The translations under genes and the position numbers were made by a program. Shown here one piece after another: positions 8,434 to 19,624 of a stretch of DNA of 19,624 nt (position 1 is the stretch's first letter; the number at the start of each line of letters is the position of its first letter). Under the pieces are notes generated by a model. That model worked only from the letters and a program-made list of their open reading frames with translations. It had not been told where the DNA came from and ran no database searches. Source of the stretch: Sandaracinaceae bacterium (GTDB lineage Bacteria > Myxococcota_A > Polyangia > Polyangiales > Sandaracinaceae); NCBI GenBank assembly GCA_044220955.1, contig JBGAQA010000114.1:1-19624 (forward strand), in the 5' to 3' direction.

Positions 8434-9069
8434 GTGCGCAAGACCCGCATACTCGTCGCGGACGACCACGAGCTCGTGCGGAAGGGTCTGCGCCGGCTGA
8501 TCGTGGGCCACGCGGGCTGGTGCGTGTGTGGGGAGGCGCCGGACGGCGAGCGGGCGCTCGAGCTCGCCCGCGCCACGCGCCCCGACGTCGTCGTCGCGGA
8601 CCTCGCGATGCCGAGGCTCGACGGGCTCGGGCTCCTGCGGCGCGTCCGGCGCGAGCGCCCCGAGGTCGTGACCGTCCTGGTCTCCGGCCTCGTCGCGCCC
8701 GGCCTCGACGACGGGCTCGCGCGCGAGGTGCTCGCGATGGGGATCGACGCCGTCGTCTCCAAGGCGGACGTCGCCGAGGCGCTCGTCACGGCCATCGAGC
8801 GTGCGCTCGTCGGCGTGCGCACCCGGCCGCGCGAGCGAGCGGCGCGGCCCGGGTCGGCCCCGCGGCCGCACCACGCGCTGACGCCGCGCGAGCGCGAGGT
8901 CATCGCCCTGATCGTCGGCGGTGCGAGCACCAAGGACGTGGCGCGCGCGCTGGGCATCAGCCTGCGCACCGTGGACGCGCACCGGGCCAACATCGCGCGC
9001 AAGCTCGACGTGCGCTCGGTCGCGGCGCTCGTCCGGTACGCGCTCCGTCACGGGATCGCGGATGCATGA
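8434..9069 (+). CDS. NarL/LuxR family DNA-binding response regulator
   Basis: Receiver ILVADDH...VVVADLAMP...VLVSG...VSK and LuxR HTH LTPREREV...ISLRTVDAHRANIARKL. Confidence 0.93.
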   Translation: MRKTRILVADDHELVRKGLRRLIVGHAGWCVCGEAPDGERALELARATRPDVVVADLAMPRLDGLGLLRRVRRERPEVVTVLVSGLVAPGLDDGLAREVLAMGIDAVVSKADVAEALVTAIERALVGVRTRPRERAARPGSAPRPHHALTPREREVIALIVGGASTKDVARALGISLRTVDAHRANIARKLDVRSVAALVRYALRHGIADA

Positions 9070-9192
9070 GGAGCCGTTCCGGCGAGCGCTCCGGTCCTGG
9101 CTCGCCGGCGCTCGACGGCACTCGGTGTTTCTGCCGATGGCGCCGGCCCGCCGGCGCGCGCTAGGAAGCTCCCCTGGCCGCGCCCGAACCCC

Positions 9193-9876
9193 ATGCGCTC
9201 CCGATCCTCCATCCCGTCCGCGAAGGCCGCGAGCACCGCGCGCAAAGGACGCGCGAGCGCGGAGCGTGCGAGGATCCTCGTCGCCCATCACCAGGATCTG
9301 GCGCGCCTGGGCCTTCGCTCCCTGCTCGAGGAGCGTCCGGGCTGGGAGGTCGTGGCCCAGTGCGGGGACGGCCGAAAGGCGTTCGAGCGCGCGCGCCGGC
9401 TGAGGCCGGACGTCACGGTGCTCGAGGCCGAGCTGCCCGGGATGGGCGGACTGAGCGTCGCGCGCCGGCTGCGCGACGCGGTGCCGGACACGCGGACGCT
9501 CCTGCTCGCGACGAGCCCCGCGGCGATCCGCGGCGACGAGGTCGACGCCGCGGGCGTGGCCGGGGTGGCCTTCATGTGCGAGCCGGCCGCGCGCACGGTC
9601 GCGGCGGTGCAGGCGCTGCTCGAGGGCCGCACGTGGCTCCCGCGCGAGCCCTCGTCGTCGTCGCCACCCCCCGCGACGGAGACGCTCACGCCGCGCGAGC
9701 GCGAGGTCGTCCGGCACGTCGCGGAGGGCCTGAGCTCCAAGGAGATCGCGTCGAGCCTCGCGCTCAGCGTGCGGACGGTCGACACGCACCGCGCGAACGT
9801 CATGCGCAAGCTCCGCCTCCGCTCGGTCAGCGAGGTCGTCCGCTACGCGGTGCGGCACCGGCTCGTCGATCCGTGA
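9193..9876 (+). CDS. NarL/LuxR family regulator with atypical (pseudo-)receiver
   Basis: Intact HTH LTPREREV...LSVRTVDTHRANVMRKL. The receiver reads ILVAHHQ, VTVLEAELP and GVAFMC in place of the DD, D and K positions. Confidence 0.88.
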   Translation: MRSRSSIPSAKAASTARKGRASAERARILVAHHQDLARLGLRSLLEERPGWEVVAQCGDGRKAFERARRLRPDVTVLEAELPGMGGLSVARRLRDAVPDTRTLLLATSPAAIRGDEVDAAGVAGVAFMCEPAARTVAAVQALLEGRTWLPREPSSSSPPPATETLTPREREVVRHVAEGLSSKEIASSLALSVRTVDTHRANVMRKLRLRSVSEVVRYAVRHRLVDP

Positions 9877-9926
9877 CGCCACCGCCGCGCGACCGGCCGC
9901 GGAGGACCACGTAGGTATTTCCATGG

Positions 9927-12065
9927 ATGGCCGCGAGGGGCCCCGGGTCACTACCGTGCCCGTCGGGGGATCGCGTGGGATCGGAGACACCGCCTCGTTC
10001 GGATCGAGCCGGCGCGCGCGCGCCGGACAGCCGCGTGGATCGGCTCTCCGAAAAGCTCGGTTCGCTCACGGCCCTGGCCCGCGCGCTCGCGCAGGCCGCT
10101 CCGGTCGAGGCGCTCCTCGCGGCGCTCGAGCTCCCGATGGGCGCGCCCGGCGGGGGCCGCGCCGGCGTCCTGCTCGCCGTCCGGCGCGGCGTCGTCACGC
10201 GGCACGCGTTCGGCGACGCCCCGTGGCAGGGCGCGGTCCGGGCCTGGGCGGCCGTGGCTCCCGCCGGCCTCGTCGAGCAGCTCGCCGCGGCGCGCTCTGC
10301 CGTCCGCGCTCCGGGCGAGGGGGTGCCTCCGGAGCTCGGCGCGCTCGCCGGCGCCGAAGGCGGGCCCTCGATCTGGATCGCTCCCGTTCGAGGCCGCGGC
10401 CGCGCGCCCGACGGGATCCTGGTGATCGGCTTCGAGCGCGCGGCGGACTCCGACGCCGACCGCGCCGCGTGGGTCGAGGGCGTGGCGAGCCTGCTCGAGG
10501 TGGCCGTCGAGCTCGGGCGGGCCGCGCAGGCGCGCTCGCTGGCGAGCGTCGAGGCGCTCGGCCCCGGCACGACGCTCCGCGCGGTGCTCGACGCGGTCTC
10601 GGACGGAGTCGGCGTCATCGACGCCAGCGGCAAGCTCGCGTACTGGAACCCGCACATCGAGACGCTCCTGCGCGCGGTCCCCGTGCCCGGCGAGGGGGCC
10701 GAGGAGCGCGCGCGCACGTACGGGATCTTCCTCGCGGACCAGACGACGCTCTGCCCGGCGAGCGCGCTGCCCGGCATGCGGGCGCTGCGCGGGGAGCGGG
10801 TCGACGGTGCCGAGCTCTTCCTGCGGCACACGACGGGACCGCCCGCCTGGATCCGGGTGGACGCACGCCCTCTCTTCGACGCGGACGGACGGATCATCGG
10901 CGCCGTGGCGGTCTCCCGCGACGTCACGAGGGAGAAGAGCGAGCGCGAGCGGCTCGCGGTGAGCGAGCGCCTGGTGTCGGTCGGGATGGTCGCCGCGGGT
11001 GTCGCCCACGAGGTCAACAACCCGCTGACGGTGGTGCTGGCGAACCTCGATCTCGCGATGCGCGCGGCCAGCGAGGGCCCGTCCACCGAGGCGTCCGAGG
11101 TGCTCTCGACGGCGCTGCGCGACGCGCGGGAGGCCGCGGAGCGCGTCCGGCACATCGCGATGGATCTGCGCACGCTCTCTCGCGCCGACGACGACGCGCG
11201 CGCGCCGGTCGATCTGCACGGCACGCTCGACACCGCGCTGCGGCTCGCGCGTCACGAGATGGCGGCGCGCGCGCACGTCGTGGTCTCGTACGGCGAGACG
11301 CCGCCCCTGCGCGGGAACGCCGCGCGGCTGGGCCAGGTGCTTTTGAACCTGCTGGTCAACGCCGCGCAGGCGATCGGGGCCGGGCACGTCGACGCGAACG
11401 TCATCGAGGTCACGGTCGGCACCACCGACGGCATGGCCTTCATCGACGTCCGCGACACGGGCGGCGGGATCCCGGCGGCCGTCCGCGCGCGCCTCTTCAC
11501 CCCCTTCGCCACGACGAAGGCCGGCGGCACGGGCCTCGGGCTCGCGATCTGCGATCAGATCGTCCGCGCGCACGGCGGGCGCATCGTCGTCGACTCCGAG
11601 CCCGGGCGCGGGACGACGTTCCGCGTGCTGCTGCCGGCTGCGGAGGTGGGACCGCCGCGAGAGCCCCCGCCCGACCTCGCGAAGGGCGCGCCGCCCGCGC
11701 CGCGCGTGCGCGTCCTGGTCGTCGACGACGACGAGCTGACGGCGCGCGCGATCCGGCGAACCCTCGCCCCGGCGCACGACGTGACGGTGGTGCGCTCGGC
11801 GCTGCACGCGCTCGACGCGATCGCGCGCGGGGAGCGCTACGACGTGCTGCTGAGCGACCTCGACATGCCGGGGCTCGGCGGCGTCGGGCTCCACGAGCGG
11901 CTGCGCGCGATCGCGCCCGAGCTCGCAGCGCGGACCGTCCTGATGACCGGCGGCATGCTCGGCGACGACGTCGCCGCGTACGTCGAGCGGGCCGGCTGCG
12001 CGGTCCTCGAGAAGCCCTTCGGCGCCGAGCAGGTGCGCGCCGCGATCCGCGCGCGGGTGCGCTGA
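9927..12065 (+). CDS. Cytoplasmic hybrid sensor histidine kinase (GAF-like, PAS, HisKA, HATPase, REC)
   Basis: H-box AAGVAHEVNNPL, N-box QVLLNLLVNAAQA, DTGGGI, LFTPFATTK, GTGLGL; PAS (DAVSDGVGVID...WIRVDARPLFD..GRIIGAVAVSRDVT); REC VLVVDDD/SDLDMP/MTG/EKPF. No TM is evident and the start is uncertain. Confidence 0.93.
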   Translation: MAARGPGSLPCPSGDRVGSETPPRSDRAGARAPDSRVDRLSEKLGSLTALARALAQAAPVEALLAALELPMGAPGGGRAGVLLAVRRGVVTRHAFGDAPWQGAVRAWAAVAPAGLVEQLAAARSAVRAPGEGVPPELGALAGAEGGPSIWIAPVRGRGRAPDGILVIGFERAADSDADRAAWVEGVASLLEVAVELGRAAQARSLASVEALGPGTTLRAVLDAVSDGVGVIDASGKLAYWNPHIETLLRAVPVPGEGAEERARTYGIFLADQTTLCPASALPGMRALRGERVDGAELFLRHTTGPPAWIRVDARPLFDADGRIIGAVAVSRDVTREKSERERLAVSERLVSVGMVAAGVAHEVNNPLTVVLANLDLAMRAASEGPSTEASEVLSTALRDAREAAERVRHIAMDLRTLSRADDDARAPVDLHGTLDTALRLARHEMAARAHVVVSYGETPPLRGNAARLGQVLLNLLVNAAQAIGAGHVDANVIEVTVGTTDGMAFIDVRDTGGGIPAAVRARLFTPFATTKAGGTGLGLAICDQIVRAHGGRIVVDSEPGRGTTFRVLLPAAEVGPPREPPPDLAKGAPPAPRVRVLVVDDDELTARAIRRTLAPAHDVTVVRSALHALDAIARGERYDVLLSDLDMPGLGGVGLHERLRAIAPELAARTVLMTGGMLGDDVAAYVERAGCAVLEKPFGAEQVRAAIRARVR

Positions 12066-12099
12066 TCACCCGGCGCCGGCAGACCGGGTCGCCGACGCC

Positions 12100-12166
12100 G
12101 CCGACGACGGCGACGGCCTCCACCGACGCGCGGAGCACGCCGACGCCGGTGCCGTTCGTGGGGTCG
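12100..12166 (-). repeat. Direct repeat copy 1: displaced duplicate of the 3' end of the lipoprotein gene
   Basis: 63 of 67 nt identical to 13795-13861. It translates on the minus strand as DPTNGTGVGVLRASVEAVAVVG versus DLTNGTGVGVFRESAEAVAVVG. Confidence 0.9.
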
Positions 12167-12264
12167 CGCGGGCCGTCGGTGCGGTGGCGCGCGGTGCACA
12201 CCGTTTGGCGCGCGAGTGAAAGCTCGCGACACGTCCCTCGCTACGTTTCGCGCGCGGAGCACGA

Positions 12265-12816
12265 ATGGAACGTTGGGCGGGATGGCGGGGGTTCTCGGTG
12301 GGCGCGGTCGGCGCGACGCTCCTGGCGCTCGTCTGCTGGATCGCCGCCCTGATGGTGCTCCACGGCGCGCTCGGATTCACGGCGCTGCCGAACGGCCTCG
12401 ACGACGTCGTGGGCCTCGTCATGATCCTGGGCCTGCTGGCGCTGCCGCTGCCGCTCGCCCTGAGCGTGCTCGACGCGGTCGTCACCGTCCGCGCCGCGCC
12501 GCAGAGCGAGCGCCGTCCGACGGGGACCGCGTACGGGCTCGGGTGCGGGGCGCTCTCGGGGGTGCTCCTCGGCTGCCTCGTGTCGTGGCTCGCCGTGGAC
12601 GCGTACTACGGCTGGTGCGACAACGACGCCCTCGCCGTCCAGTACGCGCAGTCGGGCGCGCTCGAGGGTGAGGTCTTTCGGGACGAGGCGAGCTCCGATC
12701 GCAACTGGATGGTCGCCGACGGCTGCTGCACCGGAGCGCTCCTCGCGCTCGCCGCAGGGCTCGGCGGCGGAAGCGCGGCCGTGTGGAGGCGTCGCCGGGC
12801 GAGCTCGTCCGGCTGA
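12265..12816 (+). CDS. Hypothetical integral membrane protein (about 4 TM)
   Basis: Four hydrophobic segments and a basic C-terminal RRRR; GGAG upstream of the ATG. Confidence 0.7.
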   Translation: MERWAGWRGFSVGAVGATLLALVCWIAALMVLHGALGFTALPNGLDDVVGLVMILGLLALPLPLALSVLDAVVTVRAAPQSERRPTGTAYGLGCGALSGVLLGCLVSWLAVDAYYGWCDNDALAVQYAQSGALEGEVFRDEASSDRNWMVADGCCTGALLALAAGLGGGSAAVWRRRRASSSG

Positions 12817-12848
12817 CCTCGGCGAGGGACGACCGGGAGTGGCTGGTG

Positions 12849-12854
12849 TAGCTT
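12849..12854 (+). promoter_or_regulatory. -10 element TAGCTT, 6 nt before GTG 12861 (leaderless-type)
   Basis: Reads TAGCTT-cgcgag-GTG. Confidence 0.5.
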
Positions 12855-12860
12855 CGCGAG

Positions 12861-13700
12861 GTGCTCGCGGCTCACTCCCTCCGGCGCGCAGAGTCGGAGT
12901 CGGCGTTCTTCCGATCGCCCCGGGGGCTCTTCGTCACCGAGGCGAACGCCGCGTACTGGTGCTGGAGCCCCGAGCTCTGGGGCGCCACCGTCGTCGGGCA
13001 CGCGGACACCGCCACCGTCCGCGCGCTCGCGCGCTGGATCACGGAAGAGCGCAGGCTCGACGGTCCTCTGCACTCGGCGGTCTTCGACCTGCGCGGGCTG
13101 CGTGGGATCGACCCCGCTGCGTTCCTCGTGTTCGCGAGCTTCATCCGCGAGCCCGCGCGCCGGTTCACGGTCGGCCGAGGCGCCGTCATCCCGCCGGCCG
13201 GCGGTCTGGCCGAGGCCGCGGTCGTCGGAGCGACGGCGATCCTCGAGACCCGGCGACAGTGGTTCTTCGCAGACTCGCTCGATCACGCCCTCCGGAGCCT
13301 GGAGCAGCCGGGAGCGGAGCCCGCAGTCGAGTCGGTGCTCACGACGCTCCTCGAGGAGCAAGCCGTCGTCGAGAAGGTCGAGGCGCTGCTCGCGAGCGAC
13401 TCGCCACGCACGACCTCGAGCGAGATCGCGCGCCTGCTCGGCCTCTCCACGCGGACGCTGCAACGGCGCCTGCGCGACGCGAACGAGACCCTGCGGTCGA
13501 TCCGGGAGCGCGTGCGCCTCCGCTCGACGCAGCGCCTACTGGTCGACACGGACCACAAGATCGCGTTCATCGCCGCGGAGCTCGGGTTCTCGTCCGCGGG
13601 CCAACTGACGCGCGTGTTCCGTCGCTTGACAGGCCTGAGCCCGACCGAGTGGCGAGCGCGGAGCCGAACGAGCGCCGCGCGAGAGGTCCGCGGGAAGTGA
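12861..13700 (+). CDS. AraC/XylS family transcriptional regulator
   Basis: C-terminal double HTH: IARLLGLSTRTLQRRL...LLVDTDHKIAFIAAELGFSSAGQLTRVFRRLTGLSPTEWR. Confidence 0.92.
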   Translation: MLAAHSLRRAESESAFFRSPRGLFVTEANAAYWCWSPELWGATVVGHADTATVRALARWITEERRLDGPLHSAVFDLRGLRGIDPAAFLVFASFIREPARRFTVGRGAVIPPAGGLAEAAVVGATAILETRRQWFFADSLDHALRSLEQPGAEPAVESVLTTLLEEQAVVEKVEALLASDSPRTTSSEIARLLGLSTRTLQRRLRDANETLRSIRERVRLRSTQRLLVDTDHKIAFIAAELGFSSAGQLTRVFRRLTGLSPTEWRARSRTSAAREVRGK

Positions 13701-13770
13701 GGCGGCCATCGGCGGCACGCGCGAAGGCGAGAGCAGCGCCGTGGAGATCGCTGCCGAGCGCGGCTGACGC

Positions 13771-14529
13771 TCAGGGTCGGCGGATCTGATCGACGCCGAC
13801 GACGGCGACGGCCTCCGCCGACTCGCGGAACACGCCGACGCCGGTGCCGTTCGTGAGGTCGTAGATCCCGAGCACGTAGCCGCGCTGGCTCCACATGGTG
13901 TGCGTGAAGCTCGACTGGTACGTGAGGACGGCCGCGGTCGCGAGGCGGTCCCCGGTGCGGAAGCCGACGCCGACGAACTCCTGGTGCCCGGAGCCCCAGC
14001 GCACGTCGTAGACGCCGCTGCCCATGTCGCTCACGCTGACGGTCATCGAGTAGGAGCCGCCCCCGGGGTTGGTGCCCCACGTGCGGAAGGCGCCCGAGAA
14101 GGGGTCCGGCACGCCGAGGCCTCGCCACTCCTCGGTGCCGAGGTCGGTGCTGCGCCCGTCGGCCCAGACGCCCTCCACGTCCAGCTCGCCCGGGTGGTAC
14201 ACGGCGACCTGCGACGCCTCGAGCGCGCCCGTGTAGCCGACGTAGAGGTGCCCCGCCTCGGCGACGGCGACGCCGAACGCGAGGGGCTGGCCGGCGGCGT
14301 CGACGCGCGCGACGCGGAACACCGGACCCGGCCCCTGGATCTGCAGCGTGTGGCCCGTGCCCCACGGGAGGTTGCCCTCGGCGATCCAGGTCCCGCTCGG
14401 GTCCATCACGTCGAAGGGAGGACGGCCGGAGAGCAGCGCGCGCCCGCGCCCGCGCCAGCCGCAGCCGACCGAGAGCAGCGAGAGCGCCGCGAGCGAGAGC
14501 ACGAGGAGGGCACGCAGAGAGCGCGTCAT
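13771..14529 (-). CDS. Putative lipoprotein with two related beta-rich domains
   Basis: Lipobox LSVG-C after a hydrophobic leader. Internal similarity: SGTWIAEGNLPWG...FGVAVAEAGHL versus SGAFRTWGTNPGG...VGVGFRTGDRL. Confidence 0.8.
   Translation of the reverse strand: MTRSLRALLVLSLAALSLLSVGCGWRGRGRALLSGRPPFDVMDPSGTWIAEGNLPWGTGHTLQIQGPGPVFRVARVDAAGQPLAFGVAVAEAGHLYVGYTGALEASQVAVYHPGELDVEGVWADGRSTDLGTEEWRGLGVPDPFSGAFRTWGTNPGGGSYSMTVSVSDMGSGVYDVRWGSGHQEFVGVGFRTGDRLATAAVLTYQSSFTHTMWSQRGYVLGIYDLTNGTGVGVFRESAEAVAVVGVDQIRRP
13795..13861 (-). repeat. Direct repeat copy 2 (inside the 3' end of the lipoprotein gene)
   Basis: 63 of 67 nt identical to 12100-12166. Confidence 0.9.
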
Positions 14530-14591: not shown

Positions 14592-15401
14592 TCAGCGATC
14601 GAGCGGGACGACGAGCTTCGGACGCGGCGGCGTCGCCGCGCGGCGCGGATCCTGCGGGTGCAAGGGCGCGATGGCCGTGCCGAGCGCGGTGAACTCGACG
14701 ATGGGCGGGCCCGACGCGCCCGCGCCGCCGTACACGGCCTCGTCGACCGTCATGCCGACGATGCCGACCGGGCAGTCCGGGGTGCCGCGGGGCCAGTGGC
14801 GGAAGAGATCCTGCTGCAGGCGCTCCATCGCGAGCTCGCGCGCGTCGAAGAAGGCGCGCGTGACCGGCTCGATCTCGCAGTCCTTGTCGCGGTACGCGCG
14901 CAGGACGCGCGGGTCGATGCCGTACACGCAGTTGCCCATCGCGACGGTGACGGGCCGGTAGCCGGCGGTGAGCAGCGTGACGAACTCCGCGCCCGAGAGG
15001 TCGCTGTCGAAGGGGTGGCCGTTGGCGAGCCTCAGGCTGGGCGAGCCGCGGAGCCGCTCGGGCGCGTGGCGCGCATCGAACACCACCGCCGTGCCGACCG
15101 CCACGCACTTGGCGACCTGCCGCGCGCCGCGCCACACGTGGTGCTCCACCTCGAGGCGCACGTCGACCACGCCCTCGGCCCCGAGCTGCGCGGCCTGCGC
15201 GCGCATGCGCTGGATGGCGAGCAGGCGCGCCTGACGCATCGCGTGGCTGAGCGTCTTGATCTCGGCCGTCGCGACGGCCCAGTCGTACTGCGAGCCCGCG
15301 GCGAACACGCACGAGCCGATGACGAGCCCGCGCGGCAGGAAGCCGACGCGCGCGAGCGTGATGAACTCGGTGACGCCGAGCTCGCTGAGAGCGGCGCTCA
15401 T
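14592..15401 (-). CDS. Tandem YbjQ/UPF0145 (putative heavy-metal-binding) domain protein, paralogue D (269 aa)
   Basis: Two domains: SELGVTEF...ARLLAIQRMRAQAAQLGAEGVVDVRL...AVGTAV and SDLSGAEF...ARELAMERL...ALGTAI. ATG 15401 is preferred; GTG 15443 is an alternative. Confidence 0.85.
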   Translation of the reverse strand: MSAALSELGVTEFITLARVGFLPRGLVIGSCVFAAGSQYDWAVATAEIKTLSHAMRQARLLAIQRMRAQAAQLGAEGVVDVRLEVEHHVWRGARQVAKCVAVGTAVVFDARHAPERLRGSPSLRLANGHPFDSDLSGAEFVTLLTAGYRPVTVAMGNCVYGIDPRVLRAYRDKDCEIEPVTRAFFDARELAMERLQQDLFRHWPRGTPDCPVGIVGMTVDEAVYGGAGASGPPIVEFTALGTAIAPLHPQDPRRAATPPRPKLVVPLDR

Positions 15402-15436
15402 TCGAGCACCCGAGGCGTCGAAGACGCGATATTCAT
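15398..15436 (-). other. 12-codon ORF (MNIASSTPRVLE) overlapping both neighbours by ATGA
   Basis: ATG 15436 overlaps the TGA of paralogue C, and its TGA overlaps ATG 15401 of paralogue D. GGAGGG lies 6 nt upstream. Confidence 0.4.
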
Positions 15437-16554
15437 TCCGCACCCTCCACTTTCTTCACCACCGGCGGGTTCGCCGAGAGCACGAGGATCGGATCCGGCA
15501 GCTCTCCCGCGTGGCCCGGCGCGACCGCCGTGCCGATGACGAAGAGCTCGATCACCTCGCCGTTGCTGAGCGCCGCGTTGCCCATGTTCCACGGATCCGT
15601 GCGCCACGCGTGCTCGCGCTCGGCCACGGTCACGCCGACGATCCCGGTCGCCCCGAGATCCTCGGCCTCGTCCTGCAACCGCTCGATCGCGAGCTCGCGG
15701 GCGTCGTAGAGCGCGTGCGTGTACTCGGGCAGCTCGCGGCTCTCGTTCGCGCGCACCTGCAGGAGCGAGGGCGGCACGTAGTAGACGCAGTTGCCCATCA
15801 CGAACCCGAGCGGCCGGTAGCCGCAGCGGATGAGCATCCAGAAGTCCTGCCCGCTCAGGTCGGACTGGAAGGGCTTGCCGCTCTGGTGCCGGTAGGTGCC
15901 CGGGTGCGTGCGGTGCCGGATCGCGGTGCCGATCGCGATGAACTCGGCCGTGTTGCTGCCGAACGAGTAGCTCGCCCGGCCCTGCGGCTGGTTCCAGGGC
16001 GGGATGGGCAACGCCTGCCACGCCTGCCGCCGCCCGTACTGCTGCCACTGCTGGTCGGCGACCTGGCGCCAGCCGCTCCAGTAGCCGGCGCTGGGGATGC
16101 TCGGCATGCCGCCGAACGTGACCGTCCCCATCGGCCGGCGGAAGCCGAGCCGCTTGGACCACTTCGCCCACGCCCGGTACTGCTGGAACTCCTGCCGGCG
16201 CGGGTCGAGGGCGAGGTTGATGGTGAGGCGCACGCCGATGATGCCGTCGGCGCCGAGCTCGGCCGCCTCCTCCTCCATGCGGTTCATCGCGAGCTCGCGC
16301 GCGTGATAGAGGGCGCGCGAGGTGTCGACGAGCTCGCGGCCCGGCTCGCCGCGCGCGAGCGAGGGGAGCTGCGTCGCGACCTGGTAGATCGACGTGCCCA
16401 TCACCATGCCGACGGGCTCGAAGCCCGCCTCGCGCACGAGCAGGAACTCGTTGACGCTCAGGTCGCTCGTGAAGAAGTGGTGCTGGCGCATGTCCGCCAG
16501 GCGCTCGAGCGCGTGGACGGGCAGGTCTCTCGCTTCTCCGGGCTGCCAGGCCAT
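15433..16554 (-). CDS. Tandem YbjQ/UPF0145 domain protein, paralogue C, with an ~80-aa W/Q/R-rich insertion (373 aa)
   Basis: FTSDLSVNEF...ARELAMNRMEEEAAELGADGIIGVRL...AIGTAI and FQSDLSGQDF...ARELAIERLQDEAEDLGATGIVGV...VIGTAV. Confidence 0.9.
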   Translation of the reverse strand: MAWQPGEARDLPVHALERLADMRQHHFFTSDLSVNEFLLVREAGFEPVGMVMGTSIYQVATQLPSLARGEPGRELVDTSRALYHARELAMNRMEEEAAELGADGIIGVRLTINLALDPRRQEFQQYRAWAKWSKRLGFRRPMGTVTFGGMPSIPSAGYWSGWRQVADQQWQQYGRRQAWQALPIPPWNQPQGRASYSFGSNTAEFIAIGTAIRHRTHPGTYRHQSGKPFQSDLSGQDFWMLIRCGYRPLGFVMGNCVYYVPPSLLQVRANESRELPEYTHALYDARELAIERLQDEAEDLGATGIVGVTVAEREHAWRTDPWNMGNAALSNGEVIELFVIGTAVAPGHAGELPDPILVLSANPPVVKKVEGAE

Positions 16555-16555
16555 G

Positions 16556-17569
16556 TCAGCCGTCCCCCGCGTCTTCGTCGCGCTCGAGGGCCATCTCCTC
16601 GGCCTCCTCGGCGGCGATCTCGATCTCGTCGGCGTCGTCCTCGCCCTCGATCACGTCGTCGTGGCGGCGCCCGAGCGGCACCATGGAGAGGATGAGCGGC
16701 GGCACCTCGTGCGCGCGCTCGGCCTGGCGCTCGGGGATGCGCCGCACGCCGGTGCCGAACCAGCTCACGTCGACGTCGAGGTCGTCGAGCTGGCAGCCCC
16801 CGTAGCCACAAGGGACCTCCTTCACCTTCACCTTCAGGTCGCTGCCGATGACGAACTCGGCGCCGAACTGGTTGGCCTGCTGGAGCAGGCGCTGCGACGC
16901 GATCTGGCGCGCCTGCTCCACCGCGTTGCTCGCCTGCGTCAGCTCGACCGTGCCGTTGCCGACGCCGCTCGTGACGTGCCAGACGTGGTAGCGGCAGAAC
17001 TCGAAGAGAAAGCCGCAGGGCTCGAAGCCGTCCTGCGCGAGCGCCCAGAGCTCCTGACCCGAGAGGTCCGTGATGATCGGCTGCCCGCGCTGGTGCGTGA
17101 TCCAGGGCGCGCGCACGGCCGTGCCGACGACCGTGAACTCGAGGATCTCGCCGCCGTCGTCGCCGCCCTTGCCGCGCGCGCCCATCGTGATCATGCGGTC
17201 GCGCAGGTGCACGCCGATGACCGCGTCCGCGCCGACGAGCTGGGCCTCCGTGAAGAGGCGGGCCACGGCCTTGCGCCGCGAGGCCCGATGGCCGTCGCTG
17301 ATGATCGAGATCTCGCTCGTCTTGCCCTTGTAGTCGGGGATCTGACCGACGTGGTAGATGCAGCTCCCCATCACCTGCGAGATCGGCTGCACGTGCGCGT
17401 CGCGCGCGAGCAAGAACTCGGGGACGGAGAGGTCGCTCGTGAAGAGGCGCGCGTGCGCGCCGGCCTCCTCGGCGAGCCGCTCCTTGGCGCGCAGCGGGAT
17501 CCCGCCGCCGCGCACCTCGTTCAGGCTCTGCGCGATGTTGATCGCCGGACGATTCCGGACGTTGGACAT
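16556..17569 (-). CDS. Tandem YbjQ/UPF0145 domain protein, paralogue B, with acidic tail (337 aa)
   Basis: FTSDLSVPEF...EAQLVGADAVIGVHL...VVGTAV and ITDLSGQEL...QANQFGAEFVIG...WFGTGV. ATG 17569 overlaps the upstream stop (TGATG). Confidence 0.88.
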   Translation of the reverse strand: MSNVRNRPAINIAQSLNEVRGGGIPLRAKERLAEEAGAHARLFTSDLSVPEFLLARDAHVQPISQVMGSCIYHVGQIPDYKGKTSEISIISDGHRASRRKAVARLFTEAQLVGADAVIGVHLRDRMITMGARGKGGDDGGEILEFTVVGTAVRAPWITHQRGQPIITDLSGQELWALAQDGFEPCGFLFEFCRYHVWHVTSGVGNGTVELTQASNAVEQARQIASQRLLQQANQFGAEFVIGSDLKVKVKEVPCGYGGCQLDDLDVDVSWFGTGVRRIPERQAERAHEVPPLILSMVPLGRRHDDVIEGEDDADEIEIAAEEAEEMALERDEDAGDG

Positions 17570-18375
17570 CAGTCCCCCACGCTGAGCACGAGGGCGGGGC
17601 GCTCGATGTGGTGGTCCTCGCGGATGGGGACGACGGCCGTCCCGACGGCGCTGAACTCGAGGACGGTCGGGCCCCACGTGTGGTTGTTCTCGTCGATCGC
17701 CACGCCGACGATGCCACGCGCCCCGAGCGCCTCGGCCTCGACCTGCATGCGCTCCATCGCGAGCTCGCGCGCGTCGTAGAGCGCCTGCGTCGGGCCGGTC
17801 AGCTCGCGGCTGTCGACGGGCTGCCGGTTCGACATCTGGCCCTGGCCGACGTTGTAGACGCAGTTGCCCATCACGAAGCCGAGCGGGCGGTAGCCCGCGT
17901 TGAGCAGCGTCCAGAAGTCCTGGCCCGAGAGGTCGCTCGTGAACGGGCGGTTCTCCGGCCCGCGGAAGCCTTGCTGGTAGGCCTTCACCGCCGTGCCGAT
18001 GGCCATGAACTCGATGACGTTGGCGCCCCACGCGTGCACGTTCAGCGTGAGCCGCACCGCCACGATGCCGTCCGCGCCGAGCTCGTGCGCCTCCTCCTCC
18101 ATGCGCACCATCGCGAGCTCGCGAGCGCTGTAGAGCGCCTGCGTCATCGTCGTGAGCTCCTCGTTGACGTGCGCGCGGATCTCCTGCAGGCCGATGTTGA
18201 AGATGCTCGAGCCCATCACCAGGCCGAGCGGCTCGAAGCCCGCCTCCTTCACGAGGAGGAACTCGCTCACGGTGAGGTCACTCGTGAAGAAGTGATGCTC
18301 CCGCATCTCGGTGAGGCGCTCGCGCGCGTGCTGAGGGAGGTCGTGGAGCTCCCGTCTCTTGTGCGCCTGCTCCAT
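17569..18375 (-). CDS. Tandem YbjQ/UPF0145 domain protein, paralogue A (268 aa)
   Basis: FTSDLTVSEF...ARELAMVRMEEEAHELGADGIVAVRL...AIGTAV and FTSDLSGQDF...ARELAMERMQVEAEALGARGIVGV...AVGTAV; GGGAGG SD. Confidence 0.9.
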   Translation of the reverse strand: MEQAHKRRELHDLPQHARERLTEMREHHFFTSDLTVSEFLLVKEAGFEPLGLVMGSSIFNIGLQEIRAHVNEELTTMTQALYSARELAMVRMEEEAHELGADGIVAVRLTLNVHAWGANVIEFMAIGTAVKAYQQGFRGPENRPFTSDLSGQDFWTLLNAGYRPLGFVMGNCVYNVGQGQMSNRQPVDSRELTGPTQALYDARELAMERMQVEAEALGARGIVGVAIDENNHTWGPTVLEFSAVGTAVVPIREDHHIERPALVLSVGD

Positions 18376-18381
18376 GGACGA

Positions 18382-18843
18382 TCAGCCTCCCTTGAGGCGC
18401 GCGAGCACGGAGGCCACGCGCGCGTTGTCGTTGGCGTGCTCCGCGATCGACTTGGTGACTTCCTTCACCCAGACGTCGAGCGCGAGCACCTTCGTCTTGA
18501 GCGCGACGCCGCGGACGAGCTTCTTGTAGCTCGCGGTGTACTGGCCCGTGTGCTCGCGCTTGGCGGTGTACATGTGCGGGTCGAGGTTCAGCTCGAGGTG
18601 CTCGATGTGGTGCCCCGCGCGGTGGACCTTCGTCTTGTCCGGGAGCGCGTGATGGAGCGCCTCGGAGAGGTCGTGCAGGAACTTGTGCACGTTGTTCGCG
18701 TCGAGGTGCAGGCCCGCGGCGAGCTGGTGCTCGTCGATCGCGACCTGCTTGCGCGACTTGCAGAACTGACAGTCGTAGATGCGGGGGTCGGCGTTCGGGA
18801 GCATCGCGGCTCCGCAGCTGTCGCACTGGACTACCTTGGTCAT
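18382..18843 (-). CDS. Hypothetical protein with N-terminal Zn-ribbon (CxxC...CxxC) and His-rich body (153 aa)
   Basis: MTKVVQCDSCG...YDCQFCK with 13 His. ATG 18843 overlaps the upstream stop (ATGA), and GAGGA lies upstream. Confidence 0.85.
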   Translation of the reverse strand: MTKVVQCDSCGAAMLPNADPRIYDCQFCKSRKQVAIDEHQLAAGLHLDANNVHKFLHDLSEALHHALPDKTKVHRAGHHIEHLELNLDPHMYTAKREHTGQYTASYKKLVRGVALKTKVLALDVWVKEVTKSIAEHANDNARVASVLARLKGG

Positions 18844-19256
18844 GCCGTCCTCACTGCGCCCTGGACGTAGCCGACGTCGGGGCCGATCACGAGCACCGTC
18901 GATCGATCGCTGCCGACCCGAAGCTCCATGGTCGAGCCGGGCAGCACGTCCCGGACGAGGTTGCCCGGGATGTAGAGGTTCACGTTCGCCTCGTAGGGCT
19001 GGTAGCCCGGCACCTCGATGTCGACCTTCGCCGTCCGGATCTCGTAGCGGATGCCGCCCGAGGTCGTGCGCTGACCGACGTTCGAGACCCAGAGCATGAT
19101 CCCGCGCGCCGGCGTTCCGTTCGACGTGAGGCCGTAGACGCCGCCGGTGAAGAGCCCGGCGCCGCCGGCGCGGGCGAGCGAGGCCACGCCGCCGCCCGTC
19201 GCGAGGACGAACGCGAAGACCATGAACATGAAGAAACAGACGATCAACCCACCCAC
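18840..19256 (-). CDS. Hypothetical protein, N-terminal membrane anchor + small beta-rich domain (138 aa)
   Basis: MGGLIVCFFMFMVFAFVLA TM, a Gly-rich linker, then GTPARGIML...VDIEVPGYQPYEA...LPGSTMELRV. Start at GTG 19256 is inferred from the -10 spacing. Confidence 0.8.
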   Translation of the reverse strand: MGGLIVCFFMFMVFAFVLATGGGVASLARAGGAGLFTGGVYGLTSNGTPARGIMLWVSNVGQRTTSGGIRYEIRTAKVDIEVPGYQPYEANVNLYIPGNLVRDVLPGSTMELRVGSDRSTVLVIGPDVGYVQGAVRTA

Positions 19257-19556: not shown

Positions 19557-19624
19557 GTGGACTCGATGCCCATCTCGAAGTTCAAGGCGACCTGCCTCGC
19601 GGCGCTCGAGCGCGTGCGGAAGAC
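19557..19624 (+). CDS. Phd/YefM family type II antitoxin, 5' part (truncated by window end)
   Basis: MDSMPISKFKATCLAALERVRK matches the Phd/YefM N-terminal pattern; the start is GTG 19557 or ATG 19566. It is not in the supplied ORF track. Confidence 0.8.
   Translation, partial: MDSMPISKFKATCLAALERVRK

Follow-up and report, generated by a model that had tools for sequence, protein, structure and literature searches.

Comparative analysis of a four-paralogue double-YbjQ cassette from a Sandaracinaceae bacterium suggests an ordered heteromer

Gene content of the cassette

We analysed a 19,624-nucleotide stretch of DNA (the window, contig C16) from a Sandaracinaceae bacterium with a genome GC content of 72.5%, whose nearest named homologues come from Sandaracinus-like myxobacteria. 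Six genes, g1 to g6, run from 19256 to 14592 on the minus strand (Table 1), with a GC content at third codon positions (GC3) of 0.93 to 0.97. Four of them, g3 to g6, encode chains with two YbjQ domains each (types A to D). The comparative evidence that these chains form an ordered heteromer is good, while the evidence for its job is weak.

A first-pass annotation of this DNA had described six co-oriented genes with coupling-type junctions, and we confirmed both. The gaps at the first four junctions are -4 (ATGA), +6, -1 (TGATG), and +1. The fifth was rightly called ATGA-bridged, being spanned by the mini open reading frame (mini-ORF) of Table 1. This g5/g6 junction includes a 35-bp stretch that is absent in the 8 relatives compared, 7 of which have a direct ATGA overlap; it is unique in the genome, where a second copy was not found. 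The start codon of g1 is uncertain (GTG at 19256 or ATG at 19229), and g6 has an alternative start at GTG 15443. Neither a sigma-70-like promoter nor a minus-strand terminator was found.

Table 1. Features of the double-YbjQ cassette in the window
Feature	Coordinates	Strand	Description
g1	18840..19256	-	One N-terminal hydrophobic helix and a beta domain; predicted membrane anchor
g2	18382..18843	-	153-aa partner protein; myxobacterial Zn ribbon on a conserved alpha/beta core
g3	17569..18375	-	Double-YbjQ type A, 268 aa; the family's conserved core
g4	16556..17569	-	Double-YbjQ type B, 337 aa; acidic tail
g5	15433..16554	-	Double-YbjQ type C, 373 aa; Myxococcota duplicate of type A
g5 insert	about 16212-15970	-	Trp/Gln-rich, about 80 aa
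mini-ORF	15436-15398	-	12 codons; ATG overlaps g5 stop, TGA overlaps g6 ATG at 15401
g6	14592..15401	-	Double-YbjQ type D, 269 aa from ATG 15401, matching orthologues

Four types of double-YbjQ chain

All four chains passed the Pfam cut-off for PF01906 (23 bits), with scores of 90, 47, 63, and 42 bits for g3, g4, g5, and g6, respectively. Two stretches passed in each of g3, g4, and g5 and one in g6, both repeats of which were recovered by BLAST and alignment. Identity among the eight domains ranges from 22 to 60%, the second domain of type B being the most divergent. An AlphaFold2 (AF2) model of g3, built from an 82-row alignment, had a predicted local distance difference test score (pLDDT) of 93 and a predicted template modelling score (pTM) of 0.88. 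It matched solved YbjQ structures by Foldseek (1y2i, E 1.9e-4; 1vr4, E 6e-4) and by VIA (1vr4_B, Z 6.5, root mean square deviation, rmsd, 2.4, 75 aligned). The YbjQ fold proposed in the first-pass annotation was thus found, by Pfam as well as by Foldseek. The mycobacterial double-YbjQ proteins are 46 to 48% identical to g3.

A FastTree tree of 190 chains (duplicate locus L105, frameshifted or gapped rows, and chains below 230 aa left out) placed g4 in a B clade of 72 rows across phyla, with support of 99, and g3, g5, and g6 in separate myxobacterial clades. Types A and B are ancient clades found across phyla, and types C and D are Myxococcota clades. The paralogues have, on this tree, an old origin and have been stably retained. 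The four stable orthologous types also support the earlier view of the paralogues as diverged and non-redundant.

Distribution of the cassette

We scanned GTDB genomes and examined the best 80 of 600 confirmed stretches (about 2900 estimated), a set biased to type A. This set includes loci from Myxococcota, Actinomycetota, Chloroflexota, Cyanobacteriota, Melainabacteria, Armatimonadota, and Bacillota. By gene call, the 80 loci carry one (15 loci), two (51), three (4), or four (10) double-YbjQ genes. A g2 homologue is present in 69 (64 called and 5 found by six-frame search); among the 11 loci without one, 4 are cut by the contig start and 4 have a von Willebrand factor A (vWA) domain fused to type B. 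A core made up of a small protein and between one and three double-YbjQ chains occurs widely among the bacterial phyla, and the gene neighbourhood is conserved in other genomes, as the first-pass annotation had anticipated.

Cassettes with four paralogues were found at 25 distinct loci. Apart from L057, which is titled Pseudomonadota, these belong to the phylum of the window or to records titled as myxobacteria or deltaproteobacteria. The A-B-C-D order is kept in 24, g2 and g1 are each present in 17, and the exact six-gene order occurs in 10. The position of g1 varies, up- or downstream, yet it stays with the cassette, so that the membrane gene proposed earlier goes with cassettes of this type. 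Only in Myxococcota was the form with four paralogues, frequently including the membrane gene, seen.

No relative was encoded on viral contigs; BFVD held one single-domain match at E<=0.001, and PHROGs only phrog_15412, of unknown function. In Chloroflexota, single-domain YbjQ genes with the same FTSDLS segment occur, one alone and three clustered (L130:5205-5624 and L131:5821-7677). In two myxobacterial families, the cassette has a divergent PHA_gran_rgn gene (PF09650) upstream of it (L040:8157-8471 and L144:10172-10462).

Covariation between the two domains

We analysed covariation by mean-field direct coupling analysis (DCA) of 473 chains, with an effective number of sequences (Neff) of 257. 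As an internal check, equivalent intra-domain pairs were found in both repeats (G51-L99 and G166-L217; G55-A88 and G170-A206). A z of at least 4.5 was reached by 8 of 8942 inter-domain pairs. The strongest inter-domain couplings were G103-F145 (z 10.5), T78-N171 (8.3), and E73-R209 (7.1), and further ones were G103-S147, A106-Q152, and V130-V225; they connect one face of domain 1 with the opposite face of domain 2. Positions 103 and 145 are concordant in 361 of 367 chains (319 Gly with an aromatic, 42 non-Gly with a nonaromatic, 6 discordant), and swaps are seen in several lineages. At the sequence level, this is a size-compensating Gly/aromatic pair.

These couplings indicate head-to-tail packing of domain 1 on domain 2 through the Gly/Phe pair, as a structural model. 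In the AF2 monomer of g3, F145-T146 and E72-E73 are bridged and their twins, 30-31 and 190-191, are unpaired. The modelled packing would propagate as a ring or a helix and would leave free the head of domain 1 (F30, S56, and R91) and the tail of domain 2 (G221, T196, and E191). Conservation on these free faces is high for R91 (97%), E191 (97%), G221 (88%), and an aromatic at 30 (91%). Stacked double rings, one of the architectures suggested earlier, are disfavoured by the covariation, in which the two domains of a chain behave as lateral neighbours.

Reciprocal change in types B and D

The free faces of types B and D show reciprocal changes. In all 22 cassettes having a D gene, residue 221 of B is F, Y, or L, and residue 30 of D is A or G in all 21 that could be scored. 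All 43 A and C chains retain F30 and G221, and G221 is retained in 146 of 150 chains from 81 loci without D. Three more distinct cassettes agree, giving 25 cassettes in all, with the D change in 24/24 scorable; a fourth proved to be a duplicate and is not counted. In the window, g4 has Phe239 (codon 16855-16853) in place of the Gly of the free tail face, and g6 has Ala (codon 15392-15390) in place of the Phe of the free head face. Four single-gene Chloroflexota cassettes, which form one separate clade, combine A30 with T or L221 within the same chain.

The simplest reading of these swaps is an inter-chain closure in which the tail of B would sit on the head of D. With two lateral domains per chain, the domain count would therefore be even, unlike that of a pentamer. 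Closure may involve B-D-A or B-D-C (six domains) or all four chains (eight), or the chains may form a spiral. Covariation and the B/D swap support the earlier proposal of a heteromeric assembly rather than a single five-domain ring.

The partner protein g2

The AF2 model of g2 (pLDDT 86) consists of a small ribbon and helix, a five-strand sheet, and helices. The first-pass annotation called g2 a Zn-ribbon/His-rich protein, and both features are present; they are lineage add-ons that are not conserved in the family. The window's g2 contains 13 His, compared with a median of 2 in the family, and the Cys-pair ribbon is matched in 8 of 72 homologues, all at myxobacterial-type loci, with some further myxobacterial gene calls starting inside the ribbon.

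By hhalign, g2 matched a DUF5073 protein (E 9.4e-6, probability 83%, 72 columns) and a second one at a probability of 20%. Pfam PF16817 gave no match to g2 and weakly matched 9 of 70 family members (best E 3.8e-5). By alignment and by gene context, g2 is a remote relative of DUF5073/Rv1761c. Among 251 Actinomycetota genomes, the DUF5073 gene overlaps a type A gene in both of the two strong PF16817 loci. Foldseek returned no match to g2 at E<=0.001, and the profile search found no solved relative. The nearest fold match was frataxin (VIA Z 6.3, rmsd 3.5, 78 aligned, 9% identity), at a Z below 8, which may reflect a common arrangement.

Complex prediction for three g3 chains with g2 gave weak support, with an interaction score (ipSAE) of 0.33, against 0.00 for the best of three controls, contact agreement between runs of at least 87%, and partner pLDDT of at least 70; a pass at this level is more likely to be false than true unless the complex is likely beforehand, and this complex is unlike the calibration set. 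In that calibration, 116 of 157 solved complexes and 2 of 215 mismatches passed, and the passes at 0.60 or below comprised 18 of the 157 and both mismatches.

We also counted co-occurrence by whole-genome searches, in which related genomes are not independent. Among 301 Myxococcota genomes, g2 and strong type A matches occur in the same 7 (7/7); ten weaker type A-like matches look like a triple-domain family, as checked for the one on contig C66. Among 201 sampled Chloroflexota genomes, g2 and type A overlap in 36 of 38, and both g2-only cases lie at contig ends. We mildly favour g2 as a soluble partner that would bind the double-YbjQ chains.

Two variants of the partner gene were seen. At L135:8393-9110 (also in G468 and G518), a tandem pair of g2 paralogues lies ahead of three double-YbjQ genes, beside a PspA-PspAA fusion. 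The vWA fusions to type B are found in Armatimonadota and Vulcanimicrobiota (L111:4985-6970, L112:4942-6909, L119:4928-6970, and L121:4898-7795); g2 was not found within these four loci, where vWA may replace it.

The membrane gene g1

The Kyte-Doolittle maximum of g1 is 2.74, and 11 of 12 family members reach at least 1.8. Pfam and PDB searches with g1 gave no match, and DUF3592-like clusters at a score of 0.89 to 0.90 are a lead only. Among 131 genomes of the order, including one flagged as unpublished (G026), 7 of 9 strong g1 matches adjoin the cassette, most of these having been in the query alignment. From its predicted anchor, g1 might tether the assembly to the membrane, a role that we consider possible but short of an even bet.

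Functional leads

Of the 80 loci, 7 have pspA next to the cassette, and PspAA neighbours 5 of 38 Chloroflexota cassettes; the linkage occurs in three lineages (Ktedonobacteria, Alicyclobacillaceae, and other Chloroflexota) and in three orientations. A second lead comes from the mycobacterial relative Rv1762c, which, in passages of PMC8635971, was consistently present in purified 25-nm encapsulin fractions. Part of a preprint (10.1101/2020.08.31.276014) describes an Rv1762c transposon mutant as moderately sensitive to H2O2 at pH 4.5. Family-1 encapsulin (PF04454) is encoded in 14 of 201 Chloroflexota genomes but in only 1 of the 38 with a cassette, and in 2 of 10 other cassette genomes; the Sandaracinaceae genome has an encapsulin gene on contig C238. 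Because only that 1 of 38 has a family-1 encapsulin, the chains are unlikely to be obligate encapsulin cargo. If such chains self-assembled into a large particle, the presence of Rv1762c in encapsulin preparations would be explained. By analogy with these systems, we tentatively suggest a stress-protective scaffold, with the odds somewhat against it.

Proposed assembly and alternative explanations

We propose that the four non-redundant two-domain chains would associate head-to-tail, with an even domain count overall, as either a closed ring or a helical filament. B (g4) is predicted to dock on D (g6), with Phe239 of g4 contacting the head face of g6. The soluble partner g2 would bind this assembly and g1 would hold it at the membrane, where it would serve as a stress-protective scaffold. 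An ordered heteromer with a partly fixed order is likely; its lateral packing, closure, and B-D contact are predictions drawn from covariation and modelling. For the proposal as a whole, with the ordered ring or filament, bound g2, g1 tether, and stress role taken together, the balance tips slightly in favour. A broader generalization appears rather unlikely: that tandem-YbjQ cassettes are a cross-phylum class of self-assembling rings, filaments, or cages that co-sediment with encapsulins, work with PspA-type membrane repair, and in myxobacteria form a g1-tethered four-subunit polymer with programmed order.

Several observations weigh against this proposal. The reverse couplings, from domain 2 to the next domain 1, are non-significant (mean z 1.0). 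The 25 cassettes amount to one event because the B/D swap has one origin, and adding the single-gene clade brings the independent events to two. Among 97 scorable distant representatives, 22 without an aromatic at 30 keep G, A, or S at 221 (a context-free count). In L120, B has Y221 and its partner has F30, with no D-like gene found, and L126 has T221 in a poorly aligned stretch. Of the 25 four-paralogue loci, 8 lack g1 and 8 lack g2 (2 of them truncated at contig ends), and paralogues of g1 occur away from the cassette. No pspA was seen near any four-paralogue locus examined, and the two pspA genes of the Sandaracinaceae genome lie on contig C111, unlinked to the cassette. The Rv1762c stress result is absent from the main text of the published eLife version.

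The same head-to-tail packing could also produce a short open oligomer in which B and D act as end caps, the bulky tail of B and the lost Phe of D blocking growth rather than matching one another. The 22 representatives just mentioned, with a small residue at 221 and no head aromatic, would fit such caps, as would the divergent second domain of B. Against this, E191 is retained in B together with a conserved F/Y/L at 221, most loci retain R91 in D, and the single-gene cassettes have both changes in one chain; we judge capping improbable. Redundant tandem duplicates with no common complex are a further reading of the four chains, and single-gene cassettes do exist (15 of 80 loci). The four stable clades, the A-B-C-D order in 24 of 25 loci, dN/dS of 0.16 to 0.65 (with dS compressed by high GC3), and the reciprocal B/D change make simple redundancy extremely improbable.

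A ring that binds or stores metal, with a frataxin-like g2 as its loader, would fit the Pfam name of the domain (putative heavy-metal-binding), the invariant acidic residues, Cys172 in types A and C, the frataxin-like core of g2, and, in myxobacteria, the acidic tail of B and the Zn ribbon. However, the frataxin match has the low Z noted above, His-richness and ribbon are not conserved, residue conservation revealed no Cys/His cluster common to all four types, and no metal-transport gene recurred among 78 scanned proteins, mostly of flanking genes. The metal-handling role that the first-pass annotation drew from the His-rich Zn-ribbon gene has little support, its basis being a Pfam name and lineage add-on features; we regard it as unlikely. 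That the chains are encapsulin cargo or shell-associated proteins would account for the Rv1762c co-purification and the encapsulin gene on C238, and is made very improbable by the scarcity of PF04454 in cassette genomes. An anti-phage system, also raised earlier, would suit the patchy distribution (10 of 131 genomes of the order) and three plasmid records. PADLOC gave no match in the cassette (one hit at E 0.008) and the flanks are mostly housekeeping genes fixed within lineages, so a defence role is unsupported and hardly credible.

Relation to known systems

Single-domain YbjQ/UPF0145/DUF74 proteins (PF01906; 1y2i, 1vr4, 2gtc, and 3qkb) share fold and sequence profile with g3 to g6. Those solved are homopentamers of chains of about 100 aa, according to passages in PMC4092069 and PMC2954204. 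The cassette chains differ in having two domains, an extra FTSDLS-helix segment, four types, and a dedicated partner. A further difference is a long strand that takes the place of short helices in the canonical family; the central part of 1vr4 has a beta conformer, which would correspond to this strand. The canonical UPF0145 equivalogs (NCBIfam PRK02877, PRK03732, and PRK01119; ~105 aa, single domain) were rejected as assignments, with a best score of 55 bits against cut-offs of 160 to 181. The Methanococcus selenium-binding protein (PF11524, 2jz7), described in part of PMC4092069 as a pentamer of related fold, is archaeal and single-domain, unlike the two-domain bacterial chains.

The core has a mycobacterial form, Rv1762c/Rv1761c of Mycobacterium tuberculosis. 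Rv1762c is 789 bp long with two such domains, according to a passage of PMC9846648. In two genomes, a 262-aa double-YbjQ gene overlaps a DUF5073 gene whose protein matches 2K3M at E 9e-67; synteny and length suggest that this double-YbjQ gene is the orthologue of Rv1762c. Unlike the six-gene cassette, such loci have one chain type, the partner downstream, and no g1. Rv1761c is listed as a membrane protein, whereas g2 lacks a hydrophobic helix and its model is of alpha/beta type. The Rv1761c family (L153:1480-1863 and L154:1483-1860) aligns to the predicted beta sheet of g2, and 2K3M is listed as a membrane protein. The 2K3M structure is reportedly helical and solved in detergent. It was absent among the matches listed in both g2 fold searches, an absence that does not establish a difference in fold. 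The native fold may be other than the one deposited, and the fold of the Rv1761c family merits re-examination.

A triple-YbjQ membrane protein family resembles the cassette chains in its tandem PF01906 domains and TSDLS-like segment and differs in combining three domains and a hydrophobic C terminus in one chain. Its member here (G000:C66, about 9952-11202; L002:1099-2349, plus strand) has 416 aa and a weak match to the C2CD5 YbjQ-like domain (PF23025, E 3e-4). Similar matches occur in many related genomes without the double-YbjQ cassette, and g2 was found in none of the genomes having only matches of this kind.

PspA/PspAA systems (Ravi et al. 2024, seen in part; PMC11237479) meet the cassette in some lineages, as pspA or pspA-pspAA beside it, with no such link seen in Myxococcota. 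That paper was not among the literature matches for YbjQ, UPF0145, or DUF74. Elsewhere, PMC7084401 contains a passage on a "YbjQ thiamine phosphate synthase", and part of another report (10.1101/558379) predicts a PF01906-PF02796 coupling. We found no counterpart of this coupling in the cassette loci. The thiamine phosphate synthase label is presumably a mix-up with YjbQ.

A literature search, in which subscription papers were not covered and most matches were judged by their listing, found no description of the cassette. What is new here is residue-level evidence for how double-YbjQ chains assemble. YbjQ proteins occur in bacteria and archaea without a known function, and the cassette supplies fixed partners, a specific predicted contact, and an assembly rule. 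It also offers an alternative reading of the unexplained presence of Rv1762c in encapsulin preparations. Whatever its function, a natural pseudo-symmetric heteromer whose subunits are ordered in knob-and-hole fashion would be of structural interest.

Neighbouring genes

At the 3' edge of the window, beyond g1, an ORF start (19566-19624, plus strand) is cut by the contig end. Its 21 aa gave no Pfam match; we take them to resemble the N terminus of a Phd/YefM-type antitoxin. Downstream, 62 bp from g6, lies a gene for a 252-aa predicted lipoprotein (13771-14529, minus strand) with a weak match to the LIC10280 family; it is not conserved beside the cassette in relatives, and we did not count it in the cassette. 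The region from 8434 to 14529 also encodes two LuxR response regulators, a PAS hybrid kinase, a membrane protein, and an AraC regulator. These genes are absent at the matching position in L041, L043, and L046, where a PHP-domain gene lies at most two genes from g6, and the block is likely an insertion.

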